Shown here piece after piece: positions 46,950 to 64,000 of a DNA stretch of 64,000 bases. Numbering within the stretch: position 1 is the stretch's first letter; the number at the start of each line of letters is the position of its first letter. Origin of the DNA: an uncultured Candidatus Saccharibacteria bacterium (GTDB lineage: Bacteria; Patescibacteriota; 4484-211; JAGQKX01); assembly GCA_964392315.1 (NCBI GenBank), contig CAYMOT010000002.1, forward strand, positions 41,234 through 105,233. Reading direction: 5' to 3'. Under the pieces are notes generated by a model. That model did not search any database and was not told the origin of the DNA. It saw only the letters and a list, made by a program, of their open reading frames with translations. The position numbers and the translations under genes were made by a program.

Positions 46950-48707
46950 TTATAAATCTAAATCTTTAGAAATGATTTTATGGTTAATCCTCTCAATGAC
47001 TTCATCGACTGGCAGTGCACCGAGATCTTCGCCGGTTCTTAGTCGTACACTCACGGTTCCGTCTTCCATTTCACGTTTGCCGACGATGAGCATATAGGGA
47101 ACTTTTTGTAATTGTGCATCCCGAATACGCGCGTTTAAGCTTTCGCTTCGTGCGTCTTCTGCTGCGCGTATTTCAGCCGCTAGGAGTTTTTGATGCACCT
47201 CATGTGCGTATTGATACTGGTCCATGCCAATCGGTAAAATCTTGGTTTGCACTGGATGTAACCACACCGGAAACGCACCAGCAAAGTGCTCAATGAGGAC
47301 AGATAGGAATCGTTCGATTGCGCCCATGATTGCCGCGTGAATCATGACAATTCTCTCTTTCTCCCCTTCTTCATTGATGCAGAATAGATCAAATCGTTCT
47401 GGCATATTTCGATCCACCTGAATAGTAGCAACCTGCCACTCTCTCCCGAGCGAGTCGTAGCTCATAAAGTCAATTTTGGGACCATAAAACGCCGCTTCGC
47501 CTTGAGCTTCATAGTAATTAGCATGTCTTTGCTTGAGTAATTCTCGTAGTTGATCTTCTGCATGTTCCCATACCTCCCGGGTACCCAAATATTTTTCAAA
47601 ATGCTCTGGATCATGCAGGGAAAGTCGAATTTTTAAATCACCAAAGCCTGTTCCTTTATAGAACGCTTCAATGATGTCCCAGATTGCGTATGCTTCTTCC
47701 TGCACTTGTGATTCCCGACAGAAAACATGGGCATCGTCCTGGGTTATGCTACGTACGCGTGACAGACCGGTCAACTCGCCTGACTGCTCGTCACGATAAA
47801 CCATCGTGGTATTCGCATATCGCTGAGGCATCTCGCGATAACTATGCGGCTTACGGTCGAATATCTGCGTATGGAATGGGCAATTCATCGGCTTCATTGC
47901 AAACATATGGCCTTCACGTGTTTCAATTTTGAAAAGCTCATCAGAGAACTTATCCCAGTGTCCGCTTGTTTCGAATAGGTCTTTTTTGGTGATATGAGGG
48001 ATCTCTACTTTTTCATAGCCTTTTTCTTTACGCAATTCCCATACAAATCCGTCCAAAAGATTTCGTAACAATGTGCCGTTGGGTGTCCAGAGTGGAAGCC
48101 CGCCCCCGACTTTTTCAGAAAAGGTGAATAAGTCTAATTCCCTACCGATGACTTTATGATCCCTCTTTTTTACCTCCTCCAAAAACGTGAGGTGGTTCTC
48201 TAGTTCCTGCGCCGTCTCAAAAGCGGTGCCATAGATACGAGTAAGCATCTTGTTGCGTTCATCACCGCGCCAGTATGCACCAGCAACTGATAAAAGTTTA
48301 AAATGTTTCAGCGCCTCAAATGGATTTTCTACATGTCCGCCGCGGCACAGGTCACGAAAGCTGCCTGATTGGTAAATAGAAAGGTCTTGGCCATCTTGGG
48401 CGAATTCATTAATAAGCTCTTTTTTGTACTCGTTGTCGCTAAATTCAGCTAGGGCGTCTTCTTTTGACGCCTCATGCCGTTCAAACATTTTCCAATCAGC
48501 AACTATCTCGTGCATTTTCTCTTCAATCTTAGTCAGATCGTCTTCCGACACTTTGATATCTCCAAAATCAAAGTCATAATAGAAACCATTCTCAATTGAA
48601 GGTCCTATTGTTCGTTTGGCGTGTGGCCATAAATCTGTAACCGCCGCAGCCAAAAGATGTGCCGCTGAATGCCGTAAATTGTGCAGTCTATCGTTTTTGT
48701 TCGACAT
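46950..48707 (-). CDS. thrS: threonyl-tRNA synthetase
   Basis: Editing-domain HRDL-type motifs, a class II core, and a C-terminal anticodon-binding domain. I chose the start MSNKNDRLHNLRHSAAHLL at 48707. Confidence 0.92.
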   Translation of the reverse strand: MSNKNDRLHNLRHSAAHLLAAAVTDLWPHAKRTIGPSIENGFYYDFDFGDIKVSEDDLTKIEEKMHEIVADWKMFERHEASKEDALAEFSDNEYKKELINEFAQDGQDLSIYQSGSFRDLCRGGHVENPFEALKHFKLLSVAGAYWRGDERNKMLTRIYGTAFETAQELENHLTFLEEVKKRDHKVIGRELDLFTFSEKVGGGLPLWTPNGTLLRNLLDGFVWELRKEKGYEKVEIPHITKKDLFETSGHWDKFSDELFKIETREGHMFAMKPMNCPFHTQIFDRKPHSYREMPQRYANTTMVYRDEQSGELTGLSRVRSITQDDAHVFCRESQVQEEAYAIWDIIEAFYKGTGFGDLKIRLSLHDPEHFEKYLGTREVWEHAEDQLRELLKQRHANYYEAQGEAAFYGPKIDFMSYDSLGREWQVATIQVDRNMPERFDLFCINEEGEKERIVMIHAAIMGAIERFLSVLIEHFAGAFPVWLHPVQTKILPIGMDQYQYAHEVHQKLLAAEIRAAEDARSESLNARIRDAQLQKVPYMLIVGKREMEDGTVSVRLRTGEDLGALPVDEVIERINHKIISKDLDL

Positions 48708-48860
48708 AAAAATAAAAACCACCTTTGTGTATCGGAGCCCTCGCGGTTCCATCCGATTAGGTGGCTTACTTGTCCCGTTTCGCACGGTGCGTGCAGCTTT
48801 GAGGTTGGTGAGGTCTCATGCAAATGCTGCAATTAACTTAGGCTAAGTATAGAGTAATTA
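48708..48860 (-). promoter_or_regulatory. structured 5' leader of thrS with T-box-like motif and intrinsic terminator/attenuator
   Basis: Minus-strand reading: AUCGGA-UGGAACCGCG-AGGGC-UCCGAU nested in CCACCU...AGGUGG, then UUUUUAUUUUU immediately before the AUG. UGGAACCGCG matches the T-box core (GGGUGGNACCGCG). Confidence 0.35.
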
Positions 48861-48988
48861 ACCAAATATGCAAATAAGCAAATAAATATTGTGTGATATG
48901 CTGTCTTTTGTAATTCAACAGTTATAACTTCAGAGATCGCATTTGCATTGATTGAAAACCGATCCCCTACCCTGTACAATTTCTGTAC

Positions 48989-50380
48989 ATGCTAAGTCCT
49001 CATATATTTCGTTCGTATGATATTCGTGGAGTAGTTGGAGAAGATTTCCCTCCGGGTAGCGTTTCCGATATTGGCCGCGCGTACGGGACGTTTTTGATCC
49101 GCAAGGGTACGTATGATGCGCTGGTTGGCCATGATACTCGAGAATCATCCCCAGAATTTGCAGAGTCTTTTATAAAAGGTCTTCTTTCAACGGGCGTGAG
49201 TGTTCATTATATTGGCCATTGCCTTACGCAGGGCTTGTATTATGCGCGGCATCATTATGACATTGATGGTGGAGCGATGATTACCGCATCACACAACCCC
49301 TCTCAGTATAACGGATTCAAGCTCTGCCATGGTCTCAAGGCATTATCGGAAGAAGAACTCAAGTCATTGCATACGCTTGTGGAAAACGGAGATTTTGAGC
49401 GTGGAGAAGGAAAATTCCATTTAACAAAAACAGCAATGGATGAATATATGCGGGCGGTGAAGCACCGTATAACGCTTAAGCGTCCTCTGAAAGTAGTAGT
49501 AGATTTAGGAAATGGCACCGGAGGACTTTTCGTACCGCGTTTACTACGTATGCTTGGATGCGAGGTGCATACATTGTTTGCAGACGTTGATCCCACCTTC
49601 CCTAATCACATTCCAGACCCGGTCAAGTTAGATAACCATACTGCTATTATTGATGAAGTCAAAAGGCTTAACGCAGATATTGGCATCATGATTGATGGCG
49701 ATGGCGATCGGGTCGGAACAGTCGATGACAAAGGCAATGTATGGCTCGGGGATATGGTGTTAATTGCGCTGATGCGGAAAATGCTGCCCGATAATCCCGG
49801 TCGCAAGGTAATCGTTGAAGTAAAAAATACCGAAGCAGTCATAGAAGAATGTGAACGGCTTGGTGGTGTTCCGGTATTCTGGAAAACAGGCCATGCGCTC
49901 ATTGACCCCAAAGTAGCAGAAGAAGATGCGATCTTGGCAGCTGAAATGAGCTGCCATTACTGGGTAACGCCCAATTGGTATGTATTTGACGATGGACTTT
50001 TTGCCATTTGCACTTTACTTCAATTATTATCAGAACAAGATAAGTCGTATTCACAAATAATGGCAGACATTCCACAATATCCGGTAACACCTGAATATCG
50101 GGTGTCATGCCCAGAAGATCGGAAAACCGCTATAGTAGAAAGCGCAAAAAAGTATTTTATGGAAAAATGCACCAAAGTTATCGATGTAGACGGTATACGG
50201 GGTTACTACGACGATGGATGGTTTCTTATTCGACAATCTAACACTCAACCGGTGATTGCTGTTCGCGTTGAGGCAAAAACTCCCGATGGTCTTGAGCGCG
50301 TGAAGTCATTTGTTCAGGAGCACCTCAACAGCTACCCTGAAATAAATCTAGACTGGGAGCGGCAGTACGACGCGGAGTAA
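48989..50380 (+). CDS. phosphohexomutase (phosphoglucomutase/phosphomannomutase or GlmM-like)
   Basis: Active-site loop ITASHNPSQYNGFK, the metal-binding MIDGDGDRVGTVD, and a sugar-binding GEMSCHY. 463 aa. Confidence 0.85.
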   Translation: MLSPHIFRSYDIRGVVGEDFPPGSVSDIGRAYGTFLIRKGTYDALVGHDTRESSPEFAESFIKGLLSTGVSVHYIGHCLTQGLYYARHHYDIDGGAMITASHNPSQYNGFKLCHGLKALSEEELKSLHTLVENGDFERGEGKFHLTKTAMDEYMRAVKHRITLKRPLKVVVDLGNGTGGLFVPRLLRMLGCEVHTLFADVDPTFPNHIPDPVKLDNHTAIIDEVKRLNADIGIMIDGDGDRVGTVDDKGNVWLGDMVLIALMRKMLPDNPGRKVIVEVKNTEAVIEECERLGGVPVFWKTGHALIDPKVAEEDAILAAEMSCHYWVTPNWYVFDDGLFAICTLLQLLSEQDKSYSQIMADIPQYPVTPEYRVSCPEDRKTAIVESAKKYFMEKCTKVIDVDGIRGYYDDGWFLIRQSNTQPVIAVRVEAKTPDGLERVKSFVQEHLNSYPEINLDWERQYDAE

Positions 50381-55343: not shown

Positions 55344-55490
55344 AGGCTTTATTATAGCACTAAACTTAGCACTGTTGGGTCATTTCTCGTGGTGGATTCG
55401 ACTATTTGTATAAAAAGCCATTCTTTCTTACGTAAAAACTGCATATAAATCTCGTTATGAATAAAAGAAATATAAGGACTTTCATATTTC

Positions 55491-55568
55491 TGGTGGGTGA
55501 TACAAGATTCGAACTTGTGACCTCCACCGTGTCGAGGTGGCGCTCTAACCAACTGAGCTAATCACCCA
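55491..55568 (-). tRNA. tRNA-Val (anticodon GAC) with encoded CCA
   Basis: The reverse complement folds as a cloverleaf: acceptor GGGTGAT/ATCACCC, D-arm GCTC-AGTTGGTTA-GAGC, anticodon arm CCACC-TCGACAC-GGTGG (GAC in the centre; position 33 is C, which is unusual), T-arm ACAAG-TTCGAAT-CTTGT, then ACCA. Confidence 0.8.
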
Positions 55569-55619: not shown

Positions 55620-56732
55620 CTATTTGCTTATTTCATTCTTGGGCATGTTCCATTCTACCAATTGCCTGATTACCTTGTCACGGCGCATCAGGTATCGCAA
55701 GTGTTCTTTTCGGTCGGGGTCATTGAACAGCTGTTTTGCATTTGGTTCCTTGCTTGCATCAATTTCAGCTTTTACTTCTTCATCAGAAACGCTTATATTT
55801 TCAAGTTCTGCAATCTTTGCCGTTATAAACTCTATAGTATATTCGTGTTCCAGGTCATCTTTCCATTGCTTTTTTAATTCCTCCACTGTAGTTTGCTGTT
55901 TCTTTGAGTAACCTTCTAGGTCTAATCCCATTTTTTCTAGCTCTTCAGTCTTATGTTTCTCCTGGTGCTCTAAATCGTGTTGAATGAGCTTTTTTGGAAG
56001 TGATAAATTAGTCTTTTCTTTCAGTGCATTTAAAACTTCTTGGGTAAATTTATTACCGGATATATAAAAACGCTCGAGGGTTAAATTAGCTTGTAATCGT
56101 TGTGTAAGATCATCGAGATTTTCAGCCCCTAGTGTAATTGCCCATTCGTCATCTGGCTTGTCTTTAGTGTTTGCTAGAGGGGCTTGTTTTTTATGACTGG
56201 TGGCTTTGTCGTTTGCTTCTTCCAAAGTCGTTGCAGTCTCGATTTTCGTGCCTTCTTCCTTAGTGCGCTCTTTCCACGTAGCAAAAAGCTCATCTAATGC
56301 TTTTTGTGTATCTTCGGGCGTGATTGTGGGCTCTTCGTATGTAACGCCGAGGCTTTTATAATCAGGAAGTTCAGGCTCTGGTCGCACTGTTACCACAAAG
56401 ACGAATTCAGGATTTCCCTCCCCTTTCATGAGTGCTTCTTCATTATTAATTTTTATCTGAGGCTGTATAAGAGGAAATATTTTCTCGTCTTGCAATATCT
56501 TCCGGTATGCACCCTCCACTAATTGCTCCAAAGTCTCCTGAAATAATCGGTACTCCCCTACTCTTTTTCTGATTTCATTCACCGGTGCCTTGCCTGGCCG
56601 AAATCCGGGTATATTGATATCACGACCAAGGAGTTCTAACGCAAGGGTTTGAGCAATTTTCGTATCACTTGCGTCGGTCGTTACCGTGAATTCTATCTCG
56701 CAATCAGGTAAGTCTTTTCTGGTGATGTTCAT
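55620..56732 (-). CDS. tig: trigger factor (ribosome-binding and chaperone domains; short)
   Basis: N-terminal ribosome-binding domain with the GFRPGKAP signature loop. 370 aa, which is short, so the PPIase domain may be reduced. Confidence 0.85.
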   Translation of the reverse strand: MNITRKDLPDCEIEFTVTTDASDTKIAQTLALELLGRDINIPGFRPGKAPVNEIRKRVGEYRLFQETLEQLVEGAYRKILQDEKIFPLIQPQIKINNEEALMKGEGNPEFVFVVTVRPEPELPDYKSLGVTYEEPTITPEDTQKALDELFATWKERTKEEGTKIETATTLEEANDKATSHKKQAPLANTKDKPDDEWAITLGAENLDDLTQRLQANLTLERFYISGNKFTQEVLNALKEKTNLSLPKKLIQHDLEHQEKHKTEELEKMGLDLEGYSKKQQTTVEELKKQWKDDLEHEYTIEFITAKIAELENISVSDEEVKAEIDASKEPNAKQLFNDPDRKEHLRYLMRRDKVIRQLVEWNMPKNEISK

Positions 56733-57304
56733 ACAGGCCTCATTATAAGTGCATTTTGCAAATCCGCCAACTAGCGGAGCATATAAAGAAATATCTAAAA
56801 ATGCTATAGGTGTTGTGCAATTGTGATTAGTAAAAAATGACGTTATAATCCGTCAAAATAATGCTGCACATTAAAAGTGGAGGCAGTTTGGGACTTGAAG
56901 GGTGGGTATAAGAAGTCTCTTTTCGGACTTTTTGTATCCCCCCTTCGTTTTTTAACCCCAAATTCCTCCGAAAACTGTTCCCAACAGATCGACAAATCCT
57001 ACAAACTCACGCTGTCCCCCGAGTTTAATGGATACAAGTCCTTACCGTTTCCTCTTTGGTCAAATTCCAATCATTCCCCTTTTAAATACATTGTGCCATC
57101 ACACAATGTATTTCCTCGCTTTATTCCCCTCCCAGGCTTGAGGAAGCCTCCCCATGGTAAGGCATATATTCAAGCTCCTCCTCCCCGGAGGAGTGAAGCA
57201 CACAGCTGATGCGGCTGTGTGTACCTAGAATGTGCTCAAAAGACGAAAGCCCTAAGAGAGCATGTTCTGTTTATTGGCTAGGGCACTATGTAAGAAGGAG
57301 ATTG

Positions 57305-57814
57305 ATGATTCCCCTAGAGCAAAGGGTACGTAATCCCGTAAAGATCGATGTCCCCGGTCTTTGTGTACGCACGCTTGTGGATGAGGTGTTTTGCAGGCGT
57401 GGTGTTTTCGTAGTCCCCTTTCGACGAGGGGATTTCATTCCAGAGAGAGGGGATCTCGTTGCAGAGATTTTGATTATCAATGACCAGAGTGTTCCGATTC
57501 CTTTGGTCTGCCTTCGGGTAAAAAGAGAAGGCAATAGGTACTGGTTCGGGCGGATCTTTCGATTGGTCGATTTTTCCGAAAAGGTTCGTCGAGAAGATGA
57601 GCAAGTTCGGTTGGTCGATGAACAAGGTCGAGAGATTCCTAACACTCCAGAAGATCGGCTCGCTCACATTCTGCGAATGCGTGTCCTTCCTCGGAATGAC
57701 GCACAAAAGAAGCAGTGGGCGTATTGGGGTGATGAATATTGGGTAGCTGCTATCTTCAGCGAACTTCGTCGCCTTAAGGTGCAGGCTGTTCGTGCGGTAG
57801 CCTCGAGGAGGTAG
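57305..57814 (+). CDS. hypothetical protein (Arg-rich), GC-rich region
   Basis: RBS AAGGAG 4 nt before the ATG. 169 aa. No family recognised. Confidence 0.45.
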   Translation: MIPLEQRVRNPVKIDVPGLCVRTLVDEVFCRRGVFVVPFRRGDFIPERGDLVAEILIINDQSVPIPLVCLRVKREGNRYWFGRIFRLVDFSEKVRREDEQVRLVDEQGREIPNTPEDRLAHILRMRVLPRNDAQKKQWAYWGDEYWVAAIFSELRRLKVQAVRAVASRR

Positions 57815-57816
57815 CC

Positions 57817-57912
57817 ATGAGTGCGTTTGGCCGGCTTCTATTGGTCTACTTTGCCTTAATGTGCTTGCTTATGGCGGGGATATTTATGCTCGCCAACATC
57901 CTTGGAGGATGA
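57817..57912 (+). CDS. 31-aa hydrophobic micro-protein (MSAFGRLLLVYFALMCLLMAGIFMLANILGG)
   Basis: GGAGG RBS 5 nt upstream. Its stop overlaps the RBS of the next gene. Not in the ORF track because it is under 60 aa. Confidence 0.35.
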   Translation: MSAFGRLLLVYFALMCLLMAGIFMLANILGG

Positions 57913-57913
57913 C

Positions 57914-58453
57914 ATGACGCATCAAGTGGTGTACGCCCCGTATGGGGCGCGGATTGAGATGGAGTTGGATAGCATACCGTTTCGCGTAGAAATGGGCATG
58001 CACGTGCAGGCGGACACGAAGAGTCTGCTAGGACGGCAGGCGGTTCGCTCGTTGCAGGAATGCAAGTTGCAGCCGCAGCTCTTCGTGACCCTCGATTCTC
58101 GCGGGCTTCCCATCGAGCCAGTGCTGCTTTCGCAGCGGCACGAGGTCTACGGTGTCGAGCTTGCGCTCGCGTGGACCACGCAGGCGTCCAGCTTCGTCGG
58201 CTGGGGGCCGCTGATGGCTCCCTGGATCTACGATCCCAGCTTCGACTGGGAACTGCGCGTCAAAGCTTTGGCGCAAGCGATTGCGGTCAAGCTGTTTCCG
58301 ACGGCGAAGTGCGAGTCAGTGTTCACATTTGCGGGCGGCATCATGATCGCCTATGACACAGACTTGCTGCGTTTGACCAATCGTTCGGCGCAGTTTGAAA
58401 TCCAGATGCCTATGCCCGCAGTGGGTGCTTCGGCCGTCGCTGTGACGGCATAG
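57914..58453 (+). CDS. hypothetical protein
   Basis: GGAGGA RBS 4 nt upstream of the ATG (MTHQVVYAPYG...). 179 aa, Ala/Leu-rich, high-GC third positions. Followed by a terminator. Confidence 0.5.
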   Translation: MTHQVVYAPYGARIEMELDSIPFRVEMGMHVQADTKSLLGRQAVRSLQECKLQPQLFVTLDSRGLPIEPVLLSQRHEVYGVELALAWTTQASSFVGWGPLMAPWIYDPSFDWELRVKALAQAIAVKLFPTAKCESVFTFAGGIMIAYDTDLLRLTNRSAQFEIQMPMPAVGASAVAVTA

Positions 58454-58472
58454 AGAGATAGCTGAATGGCAA

Positions 58473-58508
58473 GGCCGACCCGTCTGACGGGCCGGCCTTT
58501 TGTTTTTT
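58473..58508 (+). terminator. rho-independent terminator
   Basis: GGCCGACCCG-TCTGA-CGGGCCGGCC hairpin followed by TTTTGTTTTTT. Confidence 0.75.
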
Positions 58509-58587
58509 ACTCACATTTTCTCAACAAATTCAGATAACCAGCCTGTAAAAGTATCAATGAGCTCTCATTACAAAAAGGCTTATAGTA

Positions 58588-58617
58588 TTGACATGAGGGT
58601 GTAATTTTTGCTATAAT
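58588..58617 (+). promoter_or_regulatory. near-consensus sigma70 promoter (TTGACA-N18-TATAAT)
   Basis: TTGACA at 58588-58593 and TATAAT at 58612-58617, in an AT-rich spacer upstream of the lipoprotein gene. Confidence 0.55.
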
Positions 58618-58687
58618 GCCGCCAGTTTTCGCACCTCCAGTCCCGAGCGGGTCTGGAAGAATTCACAAGCAGAAGATGGAGGTTTCG

Positions 58688-59362
58688 ATGAAAAAGTTCG
58701 GTTTGTTGTTTGTTTTGTTGCTGGCTCTGGCCCTGGCCGCGTGCGGCGGCAACCCGGCGGCCGATACGACCGGCGGCGCGGCCGCGCCGACGGTGGCCCC
58801 CACAGTCACCCCTGCGGAGACGCCGGAGGGGCAGGATCCCCTACTGGCGGCCCCGGTCGGCAACTCTGGGTACGACAACTGCCTCGATCCGTGGGATCTG
58901 GGGCGGGTGCGCGAGGCCTACAAGTCGAAGATAAGTCCGACAGGTTACGCAGGGACGGTCGTCCTGCTCACCTGGACTCGGGAGGCTGGGCCCCAGAACT
59001 TCGATGAGTGCTACACGAACCGGCATGGCCAATTCGTGTTTACCAAGCACGATGTACCCATCACTGAAGAGCTTTACGAGCGTCTGACCGGCGGCCGGAA
59101 CGACCTGACGGTCCTGGCGCCCGTCCACGCTACGCAGGTACCCTCGGGGTGGGAAGCTTCGATGTGGGTGCATGACTATGTTAATGGTTTCATGACCTAC
59201 GAAGAAGTCAACTCCTACACCCTCTGGGCCTTCCAGAACGACGCAGAAGGCTACCAGATGGTCGCCGGCATGGTGGCGGCCGGCCTCATCGGTGCCTTGC
59301 TCGTTCCCGCGTTGCTCGGGGGCCCGATGGTCCCTGACTGCGGCATGAACAGCTGCGGCTAG
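58688..59362 (+). CDS. lipoprotein (lipobox LAAC) with Ala/Pro/Thr linker and a hydrophobic Cys-rich C-terminus
   Basis: MKKFGLLFVLLLALALAAC|GG signal peptide with a GGAGG RBS. The C-terminal MVAGMVAAGLIGALLVPALLGG TM-like segment ends in DCGMNSCG. The ORF track starts at 58616. Confidence 0.6.
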   Translation: MKKFGLLFVLLLALALAACGGNPAADTTGGAAAPTVAPTVTPAETPEGQDPLLAAPVGNSGYDNCLDPWDLGRVREAYKSKISPTGYAGTVVLLTWTREAGPQNFDECYTNRHGQFVFTKHDVPITEELYERLTGGRNDLTVLAPVHATQVPSGWEASMWVHDYVNGFMTYEEVNSYTLWAFQNDAEGYQMVAGMVAAGLIGALLVPALLGGPMVPDCGMNSCG

Positions 59363-59389
59363 AACGGCCGCAAGGAGAGTAACAATATA

Positions 59390-59428
59390 AAAAGACCCCG
59401 CCCTACTGTAGGACGGGGTCTTTCACGT
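59390..59428. terminator. bidirectional terminator between convergent genes
   Basis: AAAGACCCCGCCCTAC-TG-TAGGACGGGGTCTTT, a near-perfect 15-bp palindrome flanked by A/T runs. Confidence 0.7.
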
Positions 59429-59449
59429 TTATGGGTGTAAATAAAAGCG

Positions 59450-59980
59450 TCAAATACTCACAGATAGTTTCTGATATCCAAGTCTTTCCAAATCTGAGGC
59501 AATGTCATTATAAGACTTCCCTGCTAATCTCCCACCTGCGATAAAGTCTTCTTGGGTGACGTCAGCCAAGCAAAAATCCGGTACCACAAAGTTCTCCTTT
59601 TCTTCTTCAGATGAGAACTCAAAATCTACAAGCACTAAGCCTTCCAAAGCATCCGCGAATACATCCACCTCAGCAGCATGCCCGTTGTAATCAAATGAAT
59701 ATCGAAATTTTCGCAATTTCCTAGCAGGAATATTTCTAAATGCAGCGAATTCGTGCTCTTCCAAATCAATAGTATGCTCTTCATGTTGCGATGCGTCTCC
59801 TCTTTCAATAGGAATCTTTTTGACAAAGGTGTATTTGTCGCCACTTTTTCGAATACGAATTCGAGGATGTGTGGCATCTATGGGTAGATACATATCAATA
59901 ATTTCTTTTTTTGTTGCGTGATGAATGTCGGCGGGGATATATTTTGCCAGAAATGTTAATTCAAGTTCTAATTCAGTCAT
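59450..59980 (-). CDS. CYTH-domain protein (CyaB/thiamine-triphosphatase-like triphosphate tunnel metalloenzyme)
   Basis: RIRIRKSGDKYTFVKK, RKFRYSFDYNGHAAEVDVFADALEGLVLVDFEFSSEEE and FVVPDF match CYTH core strands. AT-rich codon usage like the first part of the window. Confidence 0.6.
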   Translation of the reverse strand: MTELELELTFLAKYIPADIHHATKKEIIDMYLPIDATHPRIRIRKSGDKYTFVKKIPIERGDASQHEEHTIDLEEHEFAAFRNIPARKLRKFRYSFDYNGHAAEVDVFADALEGLVLVDFEFSSEEEKENFVVPDFCLADVTQEDFIAGGRLAGKSYNDIASDLERLGYQKLSVSI

Positions 59981-59994
59981 ACTGCCAAGTGTAG

Positions 59995-60024
59995 CACAAA
60001 AAAAGGGACACCCGGCGGGTGTCC
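59995..60024 (-). terminator. rho-independent terminator (minus strand)
   Basis: GGGACACCCGCCGGGTGTCCC hairpin followed by TTTTTTT on the minus strand, between gene 60061-60414 and the CYTH start. Confidence 0.7.
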
Positions 60025-60060
60025 CAGTGGAGCTACTGCTCCTTTGCGTTGTCTCTCAAA

Positions 60061-60414
60061 CTACTGCCGCCGGCGCGCTCCGTGACGGATCTCGTCTAAC
60101 GCATCAGCGCCATCAACGTCATCGGTGGCGATTTCGGTCTTTCCCGTGTGTTGCTCGAGGCCTTCAATGAAGAAGGCGAAGAGCACCAAGTTCGGTTCTG
60201 CGGTTACGATCTGCAGGCTGTAGCCTCCTTCGAAGAAGAAAGGATACACGCCGATATGGTCGAGGAATCGCTCAAGACTCTCAGGGGTGACGATCTTGTC
60301 GTCAGGCCTGAACACGTAGATGAGCCTGTCGCCGACCAGAATTCCCCAGTTATCCGTACCGAAGAAGTTCGTGAGGAGCCTCTGGACGACTTTCAGAATC
60401 TTCGTTTTGCTCAT
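60061..60414 (-). CDS. hypothetical protein
   Basis: 117-aa ORF with high-GC codon usage. No family recognised. Confidence 0.45.
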   Translation of the reverse strand: MSKTKILKVVQRLLTNFFGTDNWGILVGDRLIYVFRPDDKIVTPESLERFLDHIGVYPFFFEGGYSLQIVTAEPNLVLFAFFIEGLEQHTGKTEIATDDVDGADALDEIRHGARRRQ

Positions 60415-60424
60415 AGAACCCTCC

Positions 60425-60787
60425 TTACGGACGATTTATCCAGAATGTCGTGAGGGTGGCGAATAGTGTAAACACCAACCAAATGGTCTGCCACCTCATC
60501 GACTTTCGGTACATTGCGATGATCATCGCCACGTAGGGCACGATGATCAACAGCGCTATTGGCATACCGATCGAATCCACGCTCACGGCGATTATGCCCA
60601 TACTCAGGGCAGTGGCGACCGATACACGAGAATCAAAGTATGCCATACCGATTGCAGAGGACAGCACGAGAAATGCAGCAATGTATGCACCTTGTTCGCT
60701 TCCGGAGAATACATACCCCATCAGAAAAACGAAAAGTGCAAACTTGCAGATGTCTCGATACCCATTACTTTTGTATGTGTTGTCCAT
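60425..60787 (-). CDS. hypothetical membrane protein (3-4 TM)
   Basis: 120 aa with hydrophobic helices. Confidence 0.5.
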   Translation of the reverse strand: MDNTYKSNGYRDICKFALFVFLMGYVFSGSEQGAYIAAFLVLSSAIGMAYFDSRVSVATALSMGIIAVSVDSIGMPIALLIIVPYVAMIIAMYRKSMRWQTIWLVFTLFATLTTFWINRP

Positions 60788-60796
60788 GGGGCACCT

Positions 60797-61105
60797 CTAA
60801 GCAGCTTCCCTCTCTTCTTCGTCCGGGAAGACGAGGAAGGCAAAGATGGTGATTGTCAGCTCACCGATTGCCAGGACGACTGTCTTGCCTGTGGCGAAGG
60901 GAAGGCGTTCGAAGCCCCCATACTCCATAACCGACTCGATCTGCGCTTCGGTCATGGTCCCTTGGACAATGACCATACAGACGTTGCCATCGATGAAGAA
61001 GTGGAAGTCCACTTCATTTTCGATTGCAAAGTCAAAGGCGTAAGGAAGGGTGTCTCTGACGTACTCTTCCTTTTCGTATCTCGTTCCTACGTATCTCCTT
61101 GTCAT
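60797..61105 (-). CDS. hypothetical protein
   Basis: AAGGAG RBS 5 nt before the ATG (MTRRYVGTRYEKEEY...). 102 aa. Preceded on its strand by a hairpin plus T-tract at 61127-61160. Confidence 0.5.
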   Translation of the reverse strand: MTRRYVGTRYEKEEYVRDTLPYAFDFAIENEVDFHFFIDGNVCMVIVQGTMTEAQIESVMEYGGFERLPFATGKTVVLAIGELTITIFAFLVFPDEEEREAA

Positions 61106-61180
61106 TGTTCTCCTTCTTGCATGAAAAAAGGGTGCCGCCACCTGCGCGGCGCGCACCCTCTTGCTAGTTCAGTTGCGACT

Positions 61181-61354
61181 TCACTCGAGATCGTCGATGG
61201 TGAAGAGGTAGAAATCCTCTTCTCTCCACCAATCGCTGAAGTCTTCCACAGCCTGGCCATCAAATGGCAGGCCAAGGAAATCAGCGACTGCATCGATCAG
61301 GTCACGGATGTTCGGAATCCGTGCCTTCGTACCAGTAGTGCATAAACGCAACAT
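61181..61354 (-). CDS. hypothetical small acidic protein (57 aa)
   Basis: ATG preceded by GAGAGAGGAAATAA. Protein MLRLCTTGTKARIPNIRDLIDAVADFLGLPFDGQAVEDFSDWWREEDFYLFTIDDLE. Under the 60-aa ORF-track cut-off. Confidence 0.35.
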   Translation of the reverse strand: MLRLCTTGTKARIPNIRDLIDAVADFLGLPFDGQAVEDFSDWWREEDFYLFTIDDLE

Positions 61355-61450
61355 TTATTTCCTCTCTCAGTTGGTGAGCCCGCAAAGGCTCAGTTGTTTG
61401 AAATTGGTGCCGCCCATAGGCGGCGGCACCATACAGCTTACTTCAGACTG

Positions 61451-61687
61451 CTACTCGGGCATGCCATCGAAAGGCAAGTCCCAATCGCCACCCATCCAGA
61501 TATTCGGATAATCTGATGTGGGGCACTGGGCAGCCTTCACGGCGGTGGTACCAGCATTCTCGGTCCCGACGATCTCGATGGTAACGTTGTCAGGGGAAAC
61601 GCCCAGCAGCTGCGCAACTTGCTGCAACAGCCTGCCAGTATCGCCCCAGTACACTATCCTATCTGCCCGAATTACGATATCTGTCAC
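61451..61687 (-). CDS. hypothetical 78-aa protein (GTG start)
   Basis: GAGGAGG RBS 5 nt before the GTG. VTDIVIRADRIVYWGDTGRLLQQVAQLLGVSPDNVTIEIVG... The longer ATG-initiated ORF to 61810 has no RBS. Confidence 0.4.
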   Translation of the reverse strand: MTDIVIRADRIVYWGDTGRLLQQVAQLLGVSPDNVTIEIVGTENAGTTAVKAAQCPTSDYPNIWMGGDWDLPFDGMPE

Positions 61688-61755
61688 AGTGTCCTCCTCA
61701 AACTGGTGTGTCCTCCGTGCCCGGAGGACACGGAGGACATGCGCATGTTCGACGC

Positions 61756-62067
61756 CTACAGTGCCGCCGGGTTGGCGAGCATCGGGTAGTTGGCCCGATG
61801 CAGACCGCACCGCTGCGGGTGGAGCCCATGACGGCGAGTCGTCCTACTGCAGCCGGGGATGGTGCACAGCCGCCGCGGGGCGACGCTGTGGTCCCGGGTG
61901 GAGGCCACTTCATAGTGGCCGCTGCAGTTATCGCCACCCTGGTAATCGGGCGTCTGATGGGCAGCATTGATCCTGACGAGGTCATTCGGCGTCATGTTGA
62001 TGAGACGCCGCTTGCGACCGCAGGTCTTGCATTCGACCCTCGTAATAACGCTTTGCCTATTTTTCAA
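61756..62067 (-). CDS. hypothetical Cys-rich (zinc-ribbon-like) basic protein
   Basis: VECKTCGRKRRL...DNCSGH...LCTIPGC Cys pairs. AAGGAG RBS 5 nt before the TTG at 62067 (the ORF extends to an ATG at 62115). Third-position GC favours this strand over the antisense plus-strand ORF. Confidence 0.4.
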   Translation of the reverse strand: MKNRQSVITRVECKTCGRKRRLINMTPNDLVRINAAHQTPDYQGGDNCSGHYEVASTRDHSVAPRRLCTIPGCSRTTRRHGLHPQRCGLHRANYPMLANPAAL

Positions 62068-62120
62068 CTTTGCTCCTTTTTGGGTGTGACCTCGCCGGCT
62101 ATCCGGCGAGGCCACCTAGG

Positions 62121-62537
62121 TTAGTTCAGACTAATTGGAAAGGTCTGGCCGACGAAAGCCGGCATTTCCTGCCGGCCGACTGGAACGACGATCTGAACTC
62201 TCCCTTCGTAGTCGTCGATCCAAATGCCAGCAACTTTGAACCCATGCTTCTGCAGCTCATCCATAGTGTGAGTCAGGAGATCTTGAGGATCTCCATTCAC
62301 TACCTCACAGCTACGATGCGCCGCCAGAACGACCAGGTCAGCGTCGCGGTGCTCCACGAGAATTTGGTCAACCGCATTCTCAGAAGCACCTCCGCCGTCC
62401 ATCTGGAGGTATTCGATATAGGCAATTCCTTCGGTATCGTCAGTGGACATCACTTGCGTAATCGCCACAGGAAGGATATCGCTGAATATCGCAGCATCTG
62501 GGTTGCACGCCACGAACAAGACACGTGCCGTTCTCAT
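62121..62537 (-). CDS. hypothetical alpha/beta protein (138 aa)
   Basis: MRTARVLFVACNPDAAIFSD...DLVVLAAHRSCEVVNGD: alternating buried beta-strand-like segments suggest a Rossmann/flavodoxin-like fold. Its ATG overlaps the upstream stop (ATGA). Confidence 0.45.
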   Translation of the reverse strand: MRTARVLFVACNPDAAIFSDILPVAITQVMSTDDTEGIAYIEYLQMDGGGASENAVDQILVEHRDADLVVLAAHRSCEVVNGDPQDLLTHTMDELQKHGFKVAGIWIDDYEGRVQIVVPVGRQEMPAFVGQTFPISLN

Positions 62538-62683
62538 CGCCCGCGTTCCTCCCAGAGCCTGTCCTGACGCATCTTCCACAGAAGGATGATGGTCAGGATG
62601 ACCATGGATTGTGGCACGAAGATGGCGGTGATGGCCAGCTTGGCCAGGTCGAGTTTGGCCTGGAGGGTGAGTTTAGGCTTCAT
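62534..62683 (-). CDS. 49-aa single-TM micro-protein
   Basis: GGGAGGTGGTGAG RBS. MKPKLTLQAKLDLAKLAITAIFVPQSMVILTIILLWKMRQDRLWEERGR. One-nt gap to the upstream stop and ATGA overlap with the downstream start. Confidence 0.45.
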   Translation of the reverse strand: MKPKLTLQAKLDLAKLAITAIFVPQSMVILTIILLWKMRQDRLWEERGR

Positions 62684-62684
62684 C

Positions 62685-63119
62685 TCACCACCTCCCATAC
62701 TCGACATACACACGTTCGGCCTCGGGGTGCGGGTCCCCATCGAACCAGGCCTGCACTTCCTTCAGGACGTCCCCGGCGCATATCAATTCGCCATTGCCTT
62801 TGATGAAGTGAATGCCGTCGCCGTAGTTCGTGAGCCATCCCAAGCACGGGACTTCCACGAGCCACGAGCCGTCGATATTCGGTGGGACCATGACGTAGGT
62901 GAGACGGCGGGCCGGGGTTTTGCCCCAGAACAGGGGGAAGTACCCTCCCGCTATCACGCTGAAGATCGCGATGCCCGACAAGGCCGCGGCTGTACTGGAC
63001 ATGCCAACATACTGCGATGCCAGCAGTAGGCCCAGGAGCACGAATACCGACCCGAACAACATGGCGACCCAGATTCGGAACAATACCGGGTCGTACTCCT
63101 TCTTCGAATTACTCAACAT
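62685..63119 (-). CDS. membrane protein with two N-terminal TM helices and a C-terminal bacterial PH-like (bPH_2/DUF304-type) domain
   Basis: AAGGAGGT RBS 6 nt before the ATG (MLSNSKKEYDPVLFRIW...). Two TM helices plus a ~75-aa soluble domain matches the YdbS/YdbT architecture. The assignment is by architecture only. Confidence 0.45.
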   Translation of the reverse strand: MLSNSKKEYDPVLFRIWVAMLFGSVFVLLGLLLASQYVGMSSTAAALSGIAIFSVIAGGYFPLFWGKTPARRLTYVMVPPNIDGSWLVEVPCLGWLTNYGDGIHFIKGNGELICAGDVLKEVQAWFDGDPHPEAERVYVEYGRW

Positions 63120-63135
63120 GATCGACCTCCTTACC

Positions 63136-63399
63136 TTAGCCGTGACTAAACTCTGAGAGCACGACGCGCAGCCTATCAAGCGCGCGCACAACGCTCCAAC
63201 CCTTTTCCGTAAGGTGAATCTCGCAGCAGGTGTACTTTCCGGAGAGTTCCACCCAGCCGCGTTCTTCCATCTTCTTGATGATCTCGTCGACCTTCGCGAC
63301 CCCGAGCCGCTGAATTGGTTTGTACCATTCGCACGACATTACGGCGTCGAGGATTGAGATGTAGATCATCAGTTGCTGAGCATGCTTCTGAAATTCCAC
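63136..63399 (-). CDS. small winged-helix DNA-binding protein (putative transcriptional regulator)
   Basis: AAGGAGG 6 nt before the GTG. YKPIQRLGVAKVDEIIKKMEERGWVELSGK is a wHTH recognition helix-wing pattern. 87 aa. Confidence 0.5.
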   Translation of the reverse strand: MEFQKHAQQLMIYISILDAVMSCEWYKPIQRLGVAKVDEIIKKMEERGWVELSGKYTCCEIHLTEKGWSVVRALDRLRVVLSEFSHG

Positions 63400-63449
63400 G
63401 GCAAGCCTCCTTGGGGAGGGGCGTCGTCGGACGACACCCCTCAGTAGAT

Positions 63450-63761
63450 TTAGCCCGGACCCAAGGTCACGGGCAGGACCCAATCGGATAGGTCCTGGTT
63501 GCGGCGGCGTTGCCGTTTCTTGTTGGCGTAGCGGACCTTCTTCGCAGCCGGCCGCTCCTTGCCATCCTGAGACCGGTGCGACCCGATCTCAAAGGTGACC
63601 TTTGCCCCGAACTTCAACTTCTTCTCGTCTCCGTCCCGCGGGATGACCGCGCTGACGTGGACGAAAATCCGCTGATCGCGGCCAGCGTCATCGGTGTATT
63701 TGATCTCACCGTAACGCCGGCTGCTGTGAACCCGAATCATGTAGCCGGACAGACTGTTCAC
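63450..63761 (-). CDS. cold-shock-domain (CSD/OB-fold) nucleic-acid-binding protein with basic C-terminal tail
   Basis: YGEIKY (FGFI-like RNP1), IFVHVSAV (RNP2), GAKVTFEIG and RPAAKKV match the CspA-family pattern. C-terminal KKRQRRRNQ tail. GTG start with a GGGAGG RBS and GTGA overlap with the upstream gene. Confidence 0.55.
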   Translation of the reverse strand: MNSLSGYMIRVHSSRRYGEIKYTDDAGRDQRIFVHVSAVIPRDGDEKKLKFGAKVTFEIGSHRSQDGKERPAAKKVRYANKKRQRRRNQDLSDWVLPVTLGPG

Positions 63762-63982
63762 GATGTAAGTGCCTCCCTGAAGCCCTTGATGAGGGCATCG
63801 GTGTTCCCGCTGAACGGGCCGAGGATCGAAGCGAGCTTCGTGTCGTCGACGAATGTAAGCTCAATTGGCCGCACTTGATGCTCAAGGAGCACGTCGATCA
63901 GATAGGCGCCATTTCTTGCCATCATACCGTCGAACCCGCAAGCGGCCCAAAACCGTCGAGTCGCCTCGCGTACAGTTATCAC
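63758..63982 (-). CDS. hypothetical protein (may extend beyond the window end)
   Basis: GTG start with GAAGG 4 nt upstream. 74 aa. No upstream in-frame stop occurs before the window edge. Confidence 0.35.
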   Translation of the reverse strand: MITVREATRRFWAACGFDGMMARNGAYLIDVLLEHQVRPIELTFVDDTKLASILGPFSGNTDALIKGFREALTS

Positions 63983-64000
63983 TTCGCCTTCGACCCCAGT

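Follow-up and report, generated by a model that had tools for sequence, protein, structure and literature searches.

T-boxes are a model system for RNA-RNA recognition and have been proposed as an antibiotic target. Reviews treat the discriminator core and a strand-exchange switch as essentially universal among them, and further hold that transcriptional T-boxes require a long Stem I and that a truncated Stem I requires Stem II. An ultrashort Stem I has been described only for the translational ileS T-boxes of Actinobacteria, which respond to tRNA-Ile (bioRxiv 10.1101/2023.02.28.530422), and this class depends on the S-turn of Stem II (bioRxiv 10.1101/2023.02.28.530422; PMC7583486). Here we describe the 5' leader of thrS, the threonyl-tRNA synthetase gene, in a stretch of 64,000 nucleotides (nt) from an uncultured Candidatus Saccharibacteria bacterium (contig CAYMOT010000002.1; the whole stretch is called the window), a member of the Patescibacteria or candidate phyla radiation (CPR). 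To our knowledge, almost no riboswitches have been described from the CPR. Full-text searches that paired T-box with Patescibacteria, CPR, Saccharibacteria or Parcubacteria yielded no paper that connects the two; most subscription journals lie outside the coverage of these searches, and a prior description is possible.

By comparing this leader with the thrS loci of related bacteria, its nature may be recognized. It very probably belongs, as a diverged sensor of tRNA-Thr, to the T-box superfamily, an identity to which the comparative evidence (a leader family, covariation, the specifier, relatives of conventional build, and a covariance model named R1) leads despite the lack of an Rfam match. 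The full statement, in which the leader is a reduced T-box-type tRNA-Thr riboswitch with a given direction of regulation, is likely to be correct. The leader lies directly upstream of an aminoacyl-tRNA synthetase gene, after a promoter-like site, and all of its parts fall within about 125 nt of the minus strand (48831..48708). Its 3' portion reads CCACCU, A, AUCGGA, UGGAACC, GCGAGGGC, UCCGAU, ACACAA, AGGUGG and UUUUUAUUUUU, followed by the AUG. An earlier note, made from the letters of this DNA, had called the leader T-box-like. The sequence it quoted is present letter for letter on the minus strand, a direct count gives the same 13 of 17 matches to the T-box consensus AAUUAGGGUGGNACCGCG, and the stem (U)GCAGC/GCUGC(A) does enclose three ACC triplets. 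Its proposal of a T-box-like tRNA-Thr leader stands with regard to a conserved specifier hairpin and a conserved bulge between covarying helices, and falls with regard to a match to RF00230, the T-box family of Rfam.

Taken alone, the pattern within this single sequence could well be due to chance. The 20 copies of TGGNACC in the window compare with an expectation of 23.4, and the folding z-score is modest both for the hairpin (-2.1) and for the leader as a whole (-1.1). The significance of the leader therefore comes from the comparison with relatives, that is, from the enrichment of UGGAACC and the covariation of the helices that flank it. The thrS loci compared were taken from GTDB representative genomes, from JGI metagenomes and from contigs encoding the closest ThrS proteins, giving 174 loci from Patescibacteria metagenome-assembled genomes (MAGs) and metagenomes (single loci are cited by L numbers); all are thrS loci, and the codon-gene rule is thus sampled on one amino acid. 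The ThrS relatives all come from Patescibacteria MAGs and share at most 69% identity among species representatives. The upstream regions of 134 distinct loci, each with 300 nt or more before thrS, total 91.9 kb; their sense strands contain UGGAACC 34 times, whereas the remaining sequence of these loci predicts 3.7 occurrences, which makes an enrichment of about 9-fold (Poisson P about 2e-21). A descriptor consisting of the bulge with its adjacent helices A1 and A2 returned 24 sense-strand sites upstream of thrS and 6 scattered false sites in about 2.6 Mb, with no second site in the 64-kb window. A codon-agnostic descriptor for a two-helix Stem I was dropped, as it was too loose and spurious hairpins outscored the true ones. 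About 30 loci share the anatomy of the window's leader in a form that can be read directly.

In this family, the first element is a hairpin in which an asymmetric internal loop (5-10 vs 2-5 nt) separates an outer from an inner helix, the latter being capped by a terminal loop of 7-11 nt with the consensus A(U/C)UCACCAA. The two-helix Stem I could be parsed in 23 of the 25 members examined, the other two being without the outer helix, and the GCAGC...GCUGC stem of the earlier note is the base of this conserved specifier hairpin. The specifier, ACC followed by A, stands at the homologous loop position in all members, with the Thr codon ACU instead of ACC in L002 and L123, and in the alignment labelled A1 the four columns A-C-C-A do not vary; by alignment, the specifier of the window is the middle one of its three ACC triplets, followed by AA. 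That note had considered its T-box reading refuted if RF00230 gave no match and orthologous leaders conserved neither Stem I nor a specifier; both features are kept. After the hairpin come a small H-type pseudoknot in many members, a purine-rich linker with AAG or GAG, and then A1, UGGAACC, A2 and the return strand of A1. Helix A1 has 5-7 base pairs (bp) and A2 up to 8 bp, generally at the same positions; a simple parse gives no A2 pair in L011 and L100 and one in L173. The G-U wobble at the base of A2 is not kept in the family, where A-U, G-C and U-A are seen. The bulge is invariant except for N, which is G in L051, and two UGGAAAC variants (L116 1140-1146 and L123 1452-1458). Both variants occur in the nested class described below, and the change sits at the C that pairs with the G of the RAG motif in M. 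tuberculosis. Relatives with no Stem III carry RAG, 6-8 nt and then A1, such as AAG-UAUUAA-CGAAG in L113 and GAG-AAAUAA-UCGGAG in L167. In L005 and L082 (about 2775-3000), inverted copies of GUCAUUGCGAG...CUCGCAAUGAC surround UGGGACC upstream of thrS, an arrangement that is repeat-like rather than a T-box.

The helices of the family were assessed in a hand-registered alignment, which was laid out by structural fields and padded with N, the helices being picked by a parser that maximizes pairing. Changes on both sides are seen in 22 of the 23 pairs of four helices (12/12 pairs of Stem I, 6/7 of A1 and 4/4 of A2 among them). The alignment contains 197 compensatory cells, compared with 60.8 +/- 7.9 in column shuffles, and none of 500 shuffles reaches 197; sliding the partners by 1-3 columns leaves 15-42. 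The parser itself was run on shuffled flanks, giving 10.0 bp for the real Stem I vs 2.8 +/- 3.5 and 9.7 bp for A1 plus A2 vs 4.9 +/- 2.9. About 4% of shuffles reach the observed median for Stem I and 2.7% for A1 plus A2, so that the signal per sequence is only moderate. As a single sequence is not convincing, the weight lies on 24 sequences with different helix sequences, from many lineages and with varied types of pairs. From the raw MAFFT alignment, RNAalifold recovered the inner helix of Stem I alone, because the loop lengths differ, and the field-registered and Infernal alignments were used instead. The alignment made by Infernal is 95.3% paired, with 187 compensatory cells vs 56.6 and at most 44 after sliding, and it confirms the covariation of Stem I.

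The pseudoknot gives a similar picture. It is found in the window and in L169, L170, L174, L173, L046, L051, L113 and L120, with S2 sequences that differ and are nevertheless complementary: besides CCGU/ACGG in the window, there are UCCC/GGGA, GCUUUG/CAAAGC, ACCC/GGGU, UACCG/CGGUA and ACCUU/AAGGU, and the S2 pair of L116 is UGGG/CCCA. L113 and L120 are otherwise near-identical and have unrelated first helices, while the pairing of the loop with the downstream segment is retained in both. A pseudoknot score of at least 20 is reached by 8 of 23 members, compared with 1.7% of shuffles.

Independent support comes from R1, which was built from 12 conventional relatives with the window and all nested-class leaders excluded. 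Over both strands of the 64-kb window, its best match is the thrS leader at 48732-48829 (-), covering the full model (positions 1-108) at 27.6 bits and E=3.6e-4, and the T-box core of the model aligns onto the A1-bulge-A2 module of the window. The next matches have E=0.78 and 2.7. The first of these, at 55430-55518 (-), overlaps the 5' part (D-arm side) of a tRNA-Val gene; as a second leader it was set aside, being treated as a chance resemblance (GUUCGAAUC...UCACC). Across the 174 loci, every R1 match at E<=1 lies on the sense strand upstream of thrS. The Rfam check proposed in the earlier note gave no RF00230 match in 48600-49100 at E<=10; the gathering score of RF00230 (93 bits) is reached nowhere in the window, in which tRNA-Val is the sole Rfam match at gathering. 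In relatives, RF00230 matches below threshold stand at the correct position (L055 at 34 bits and E=7e-4, L108 at 28.4, L011 at 22.5 and L044 at 19.7 bits), and L055 bridges the two models, with 34 bits for RF00230 and 34.5 bits for R1. The features of the window's leader are collected in Table 1.

Table 1. Features of the thrS leader and its gene in the window; all lie on the minus strand, and functional names are predictions.
Feature	Position	Sequence and remarks	Basis
Promoter-like, sigma-70-like site	48846..48874 (-)	-35 TTTGCA 48874-48869, 17-nt spacer, -10 TATACT 48851-48846	consensus scan
Ultrashort Stem I	48792..48831 (-)	about 40 nt, two helices, codon in terminal loop	
Stem I outer helix	48831-26 with 48797-92 (-)	UGCAGC with GCUGCA	
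Stem I asymmetric internal loop	48825-19 facing 48799-98 (-)	AUUUGCA facing AA	
Stem I inner helix	48818-15 with 48803-00 (-)	UGAG with CUCA	
Stem I terminal loop	48814-04 (-)	ACCUCACCAAC	
Specifier	48806..48809 (-)	Thr codon ACC 48809-48807, then conserved purine A 48806	
Stem IIA/B-like pseudoknot	48775..48791 (-)	directly 3' of Stem I, 0 nt between	
Pseudoknot helix S1	48791-89 with 48783-81 (-)	CGC with GCG; loop ACCGU	
Pseudoknot helix S2	48787-84 with 48778-75 (-)	CCGU with ACGG; loop F-box-like (CCGU)	
Purine-rich linker	48765..48774 (-)	GACAAGUAAG; 3' end is the conserved AAG 48767-65, candidate RAG motif	
Outer helix, 5' strand (O5)	48759..48764 (-)	CCACCU, extendable to AAGCCACCU via pairing into the U-tract	
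tRNA 3'-end-binding module	48731..48757 (-)	A1, bulge and A2	
Helix A1	48757-52 with 48736-31 (-)	AUCGGA with UCCGAU	
7-nt T-box bulge	48751-45 (-)	UGGAACC, between A1 and A2	
Helix A2 and loop	48744-37 (-)	GCGAGGGC; 2 bp only	
3' linker	48730-25 (-)	ACACAA	
Outer helix, 3' strand (O3)	48724-19 (-)	AGGUGG, sole Shine-Dalgarno-like sequence, 11 nt before AUG	
U-tract	48708..48718 (-)	UUUUUAUUUUU, directly after the outer helix; thrS ATG next	
thrS, regulated gene	46950..48707 (-)	ATG at 48707	translation, Pfam, ORF list

Several parts of a classical T-box are missing here. The window's leader has no Stem II, the pseudoknot abutting Stem I, and no separate Stem III; a K-turn, an internal specifier loop and a distal platform for the tRNA elbow are absent from its 40-nt Stem I. 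Most members of the family finish in intrinsic terminators and would thus be transcriptional. In L003, L055, L167, L168, L113/L120, L017/L028, L011, L026 and L002, a segment farther downstream, with a U-tract after it, is the pairing partner of the 3' strands of A2 and A1, and in L044, L049 and L164 their partner is the Shine-Dalgarno (SD) sequence or the start codon. In the window, no A1/A2 3' strand is shared between a terminator and an antiterminator. Instead, as the earlier note had described, folding predicts that the A1-bulge-A2 module is enclosed by a terminator-like outer helix, which together with the U-tract forms a signal resembling an intrinsic terminator.

This nested arrangement is found in the window and ten other leaders, 11 distinct ones from at least 8 lineages, whose ThrS proteins are 72% (L169, L170), 69% (L174, L001), 67% (L173) and 48-55% (L116, L046, L051, L056, L123) identical to that of the window. 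Their common order is (AAG)YCACC(U), a linker of 1-6 nt, the module, a purine-rich linker of 5-8 nt, (A)GGUGG(YUU) and a U-tract, which directly follows O3 in every one of them; the helix ending at the U-tract does not use the 3' strands of A1 and A2. The predicted hairpin energies range from -14 to -27 kcal/mol, with a share of -7 to -13 kcal/mol for the module. AAG stands 0-3 nt 5' of O5 in 11/11 (0-1 nt in most and 2-3 nt in L174), and the linker from the pseudoknot to O5 is nearly constant at 7-10 nt. The start of thrS follows the U-tract immediately in the window, L169, L056 and L123 and otherwise lies 70 to more than 400 nt farther on, with an open reading frame (ORF) interposed in L170 and L174. 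Such ORFs between the terminator and thrS (L170 1097-1465, 122 aa, with a 23S_rRNA_IVP domain; L174 1287-1499, 70 aa; and, in the family at large, L168 373-831, 152 aa) would be governed by the leader as well. In L116, A1 has changed in a compensatory manner to AUUGGA/UCCAAU, and in L123 the outer helix has been swapped to ACCGUU/AACGGU and is still complementary, which implies that the pairing itself is selected.

Based on the results presented above, a mechanism may be proposed. From its sequence and from the comparison with relatives, the output element of the window is taken to be the outer helix (AAG)CCACCU/AGGUGG(UUU) around the module, which ends in the U-tract and includes the SD-like AGGUGG, itself assigned from sequence and spacing. 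Since both the U-tract and O3 belong to this element, its closed form should terminate transcription before the AUG and mask the ribosome site. Uncharged tRNA-Thr should be the signal that switches thrS on, as demanded by physiology and by every known T-box; consequently, the tRNA-bound state would have to block closure of the outer helix. By homology with T-boxes, the anticodon (GGU) of the tRNA would pair with ACC, the specifier that Stem I presents in its terminal loop, the IIA/B-like pseudoknot would orient the linker, and the 3' NCCA end would pair with UGGA of the bulge between A1 and A2, so that the docked, uncharged tRNA would hold the outer helix open.

How the tRNA would do so can be suggested from the linker. 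The window's AAG-CCACCUA-AUCGGA has the same spacing as the AAG-N7-A1 linker of the relatives with no Stem III. In solved T-box complexes, the RAG purines touch the terminal A of the tRNA and the bulge (PMC11297988), and it is from this work that AAG is assigned as a candidate RAG motif. If AAG acts like RAG, the 7 nt between AAG and A1, which are the 5' strand of the terminator, would run single-stranded along A1. The 5' strand would then be withheld by capture of the flanking linker, with help from the bulky tRNA complex beside the exit channel of RNA polymerase, and with no exchange of the A1/A2 3' strands. With charged tRNA or none, the linker would be free, the hairpin would close, and thrS together with infC-rpmI-rplT-pheST would be off. 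In more general terms, we tentatively suggest that the Patescibacteria hold an unrecognized T-box lineage with neither a long Stem I nor Stem II, whose nested sub-class may switch without strand exchange by tertiary capture, steric exclusion or tension. In this sub-class the terminating and SD-masking helix would be formed by the two stretches on either side of the acceptor-binding module, where the RAG linker and Stem III would otherwise stand, and the tRNA would govern the closing of a helix with which it has no strand in common; we would put this somewhat below an even chance.

A number of points weigh against this reading. There is no RF00230 match at E<=10, and the mutually exclusive terminator and antiterminator that define the class are missing in the window. 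Stacking of the tRNA on A1 would, if anything, stabilize part of the hairpin, and a docked single strand of linker offers little kinetic resistance to a helix of about -10 kcal/mol; kinetic control, or steric hindrance by the tRNA complex where the RNA leaves the polymerase, would need to assist. Stem II has been reported to be essential where Stem I is truncated (PMC7583486), and it is missing here although Stem I is truncated. A2 has just 2 bp and no G-U wobble sensor. In addition, the outer helix YCACC/GGUGG is nearly invariant in 10 of the 11 nested leaders while the other helices covary, and pairing alone does not appear to account for this. A Thr codon lies within O5, whose sequence is similar to that of the specifier loop (UCACCAA) and also to the 16S anti-SD (CACCU); O3 looks like an SD and contains GGU. 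Alternative partners for O5 or O3 (the upstream leader, the 3' strand of the pseudoknot, the bulge through UGG:CCA and the specifier loop through UCACC:GGUGG) were compared by eye, and none is conserved. Finally, the flanks are fitted equally well by a different mapping, in which the helix would stay closed with tRNA bound.

That mapping is the main alternative to linker capture, and we consider it unlikely. The leader would be a T-box with a permuted discriminator, in which the outer helix is a functional Stem III stacked on A1, formed across the antiterminator and closed with tRNA. Read-through would then be due either to steric exclusion of the bulky complex of tRNA and discriminator where the RNA exits, or to a tension, in the linker of 7-10 nt that leads to the pseudoknot, which blocks invasion of the hybrid by AAG:UUU. 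The near-constant length of the linker between the pseudoknot and O5 suits such tension, and the flanks do resemble those of a Stem III: (N)AG closes the 3' linker right before O3 in 9/9 nested leaders compared, like RAG before Stem III, and the 5' linker into A1 (A, AAAA, AAAUU, AAGUA) is rich in A, which recalls the canonical AA, although in L123 it is UUUU. By published accounts, a Stem III stacks onto the antiterminator and is required for the end of the tRNA to bind (bioRxiv 10.1101/2023.02.28.530422; PMC7583486). However, the only SD-like sequence lies in the helix in the window, L169, L116 and L056, so that no translation would be possible in the ON state if the helix stayed closed. O3, which emerges only at the decision to terminate, would moreover be required for sensing, and the conventional relatives that have no Stem III indicate that Stem III is dispensable in this family.

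The nested helices, which leave no competing structure, could also be those of a relic T-box that has lost switching, its hairpin acting as a constitutive partial terminator or SD-masking attenuator that sets the basal level of thrS. An A2 of down to 2 bp, the lack of an Rfam match and the unremarkable folding z-scores agree with this. A relic would decay, yet ACC+A, the bulge, the pseudoknot and the helices have been kept with compensatory changes in at least 8 nested lineages over ThrS identities of 48-100%, and the leader does not differ at 95% ThrS identity and differs very little at 72%. This explanation is therefore improbable.

A still smaller chance is given to an operator of the E. 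coli type, in which ThrRS would bind tRNA-like hairpins beside the ribosome site and block translation. E. coli has the genes of the operon in this same order, and structured hairpins adjoin the SD and the AUG. What is conserved in the loop, however, is the codon ACC, and no Thr anticodon (CGU, UGU or GGU) is present in an anticodon-like loop; as the loop carries a codon and not an anticodon, the operator is unsupported. The conserved UGGAACC bulge would be left without a role, and the classical T-box terminators of the relatives lie far from the AUG. The earlier note had left room for a plain intrinsic attenuator or a mimic of the ThrRS operator; neither agrees with an ACC codon in the loop and with close relatives that show classical T-box terminator competition. 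Ribosome-mediated leader-peptide attenuation on the three neighbouring ACC triplets, a device that L171 and L172 do use, is effectively refuted for the window and hardly credible, since the sole leader ORF (48819-48766) encodes MRPHQPQSCTHRAKRDK with one Thr and has the ACC triplets out of frame, its AUG not being kept in family members such as L046 and L044.

In L171 (632-820) and L172 (1013-1164), whose ThrS is 69% identical to that of the window, no T-box stands upstream of thrS. Their leader ORFs, MTNFVVITTTTTTTC in L171 and MKNFVVITTTTTTTC in L172, contain seven Thr codons in a row and are followed by a GC hairpin and U7, by which this leader is recognized as a classical leader-peptide attenuator on thrS in a sister lineage. 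The seven-Thr attenuator of these sibling lineages indicates that the leader position is a threonine-responsive control point. In L001 (2620-3000), the closest species-level relative, a nested T-box, whose end is about 230 nt upstream of thrS, precedes a 30-codon ORF with 8 Thr (MHYPLTTIHNRQSLKPDHCTLATTSTTITL*) and a second hairpin with a U-tract; this locus may combine T-box and leader-peptide control in tandem.

The gene under this leader encodes a ThrS of 585 aa with the class II core, anticodon-binding and SAD editing domains; Pfam gives no match to a TGS domain in it, and the ThrS of CPR relatives is likewise without an N-terminal TGS domain. It heads the run thrS-infC-rpmI-rplT-pheS-pheT, which is the order found in E. 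coli. On its 5' side lies a phosphoglucomutase gene (48989..50380, plus strand), divergent from thrS and separated from it by 280 nt. As the upstream gene is divergent, this gap is the promoter and leader region, and the hairpin is not the terminator of that gene. The consensus scan predicts a transcript start near 48839, about 8 nt 5' of Stem I, and TTGACx-17-TAxAAT can be read by eye in relatives at the equivalent place, just 5' of Stem I; on this consensus match and these relatives, the site may be a promoter and is called putative. In T-boxes, N of UGGN is complementary to the discriminator base of the tRNA, by which rule UGGA would predict U73 in tRNA-Thr; ARAGORN found no tRNA-Thr gene either in the window or among the first 160 related loci. 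Toward the right end of the window (56000-64000), the G+C content climbs from about 0.42 to 0.49-0.56, which may mark foreign or otherwise distinct DNA; Rfam finds no rRNA in this part.

If functional, the Patescibacteria thrS leader family contradicts all three of the generalizations drawn in reviews. It implies that T-boxes reach the candidate phyla radiation, where annotation based on Rfam is blind, and that thrS alternates between T-box and leader-peptide control across sister lineages. A leader of about 125 nt with natural variants (conventional, SD-sequestering and nested) would be a compact, testable system, and it poses the questions of what is the minimum for reading the identity and charging of a tRNA, and whether a terminator can be gated by capture of a flanking linker. 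If true, switching without strand exchange would be a new T-box principle, in the smallest natural architecture of a tRNA-sensing riboswitch.

The leader may be compared with several known systems. The E. coli thrS operator belongs to the same gene and operon and has a regulatory structure that overlaps the ribosome binding site; there, the effector is the ThrRS protein and the loops mimic the anticodon, whereas the window has a codon in the loop and a conserved acceptor-binding bulge. Leader-peptide attenuation of the thr, his and trp type is likewise a threonine-responsive control of a terminator in the 5' leader, but the window has no Thr-rich leader ORF, and sensing would be by direct contact between tRNA and RNA.

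A further comparison is with RF00230 class I T-boxes, such as those of B. subtilis tyrS and glyQS. In both, an aminoacyl-tRNA synthetase leader carries the cognate codon with a purine in a loop of Stem I, a 7-nt UGGNACC bulge between A1 and A2, a IIA/B-like pseudoknot, and an output of hairpin and U-tract, and relatives in the window's family have the classical competing terminator. Unlike class I, the window has a Stem I of about 40 nt whose terminal loop holds the codon and which lacks a K-turn, a specifier internal loop and a distal T-loop platform; it has no Rfam match, no Stem II, no separate Stem III and an A2 of 2 bp with no G-U wobble, and its terminator flanks the A1-bulge-A2 module with no strand in common. 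The T-box discriminator has been described by the motif RRRxG-Stem III-AA (PMC7583486), which AAGAG-Stem III-AAAA before A1 in L164 and L048 matches; in the window, the conserved AAG stands before a strand of the outer helix instead.

With the ultrashort ileS T-boxes of Actinobacteria (TBDB class II, with structures from M. tuberculosis and M. smegmatis), the window shares a specifier in the terminal loop of a short hairpin, a IIA/B-like pseudoknot and a RAG-like purine linker, and the output, in the window and in some relatives, includes sequestration of the SD. The differences are the gene, thrS, the phylum, Patescibacteria, the lack of Stem II and the terminator with its U-tract, most members of the family being transcriptional. 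Overall, the T-box reading of the thrS leader is borne out in substance, and the topology by which it would switch is potentially new.

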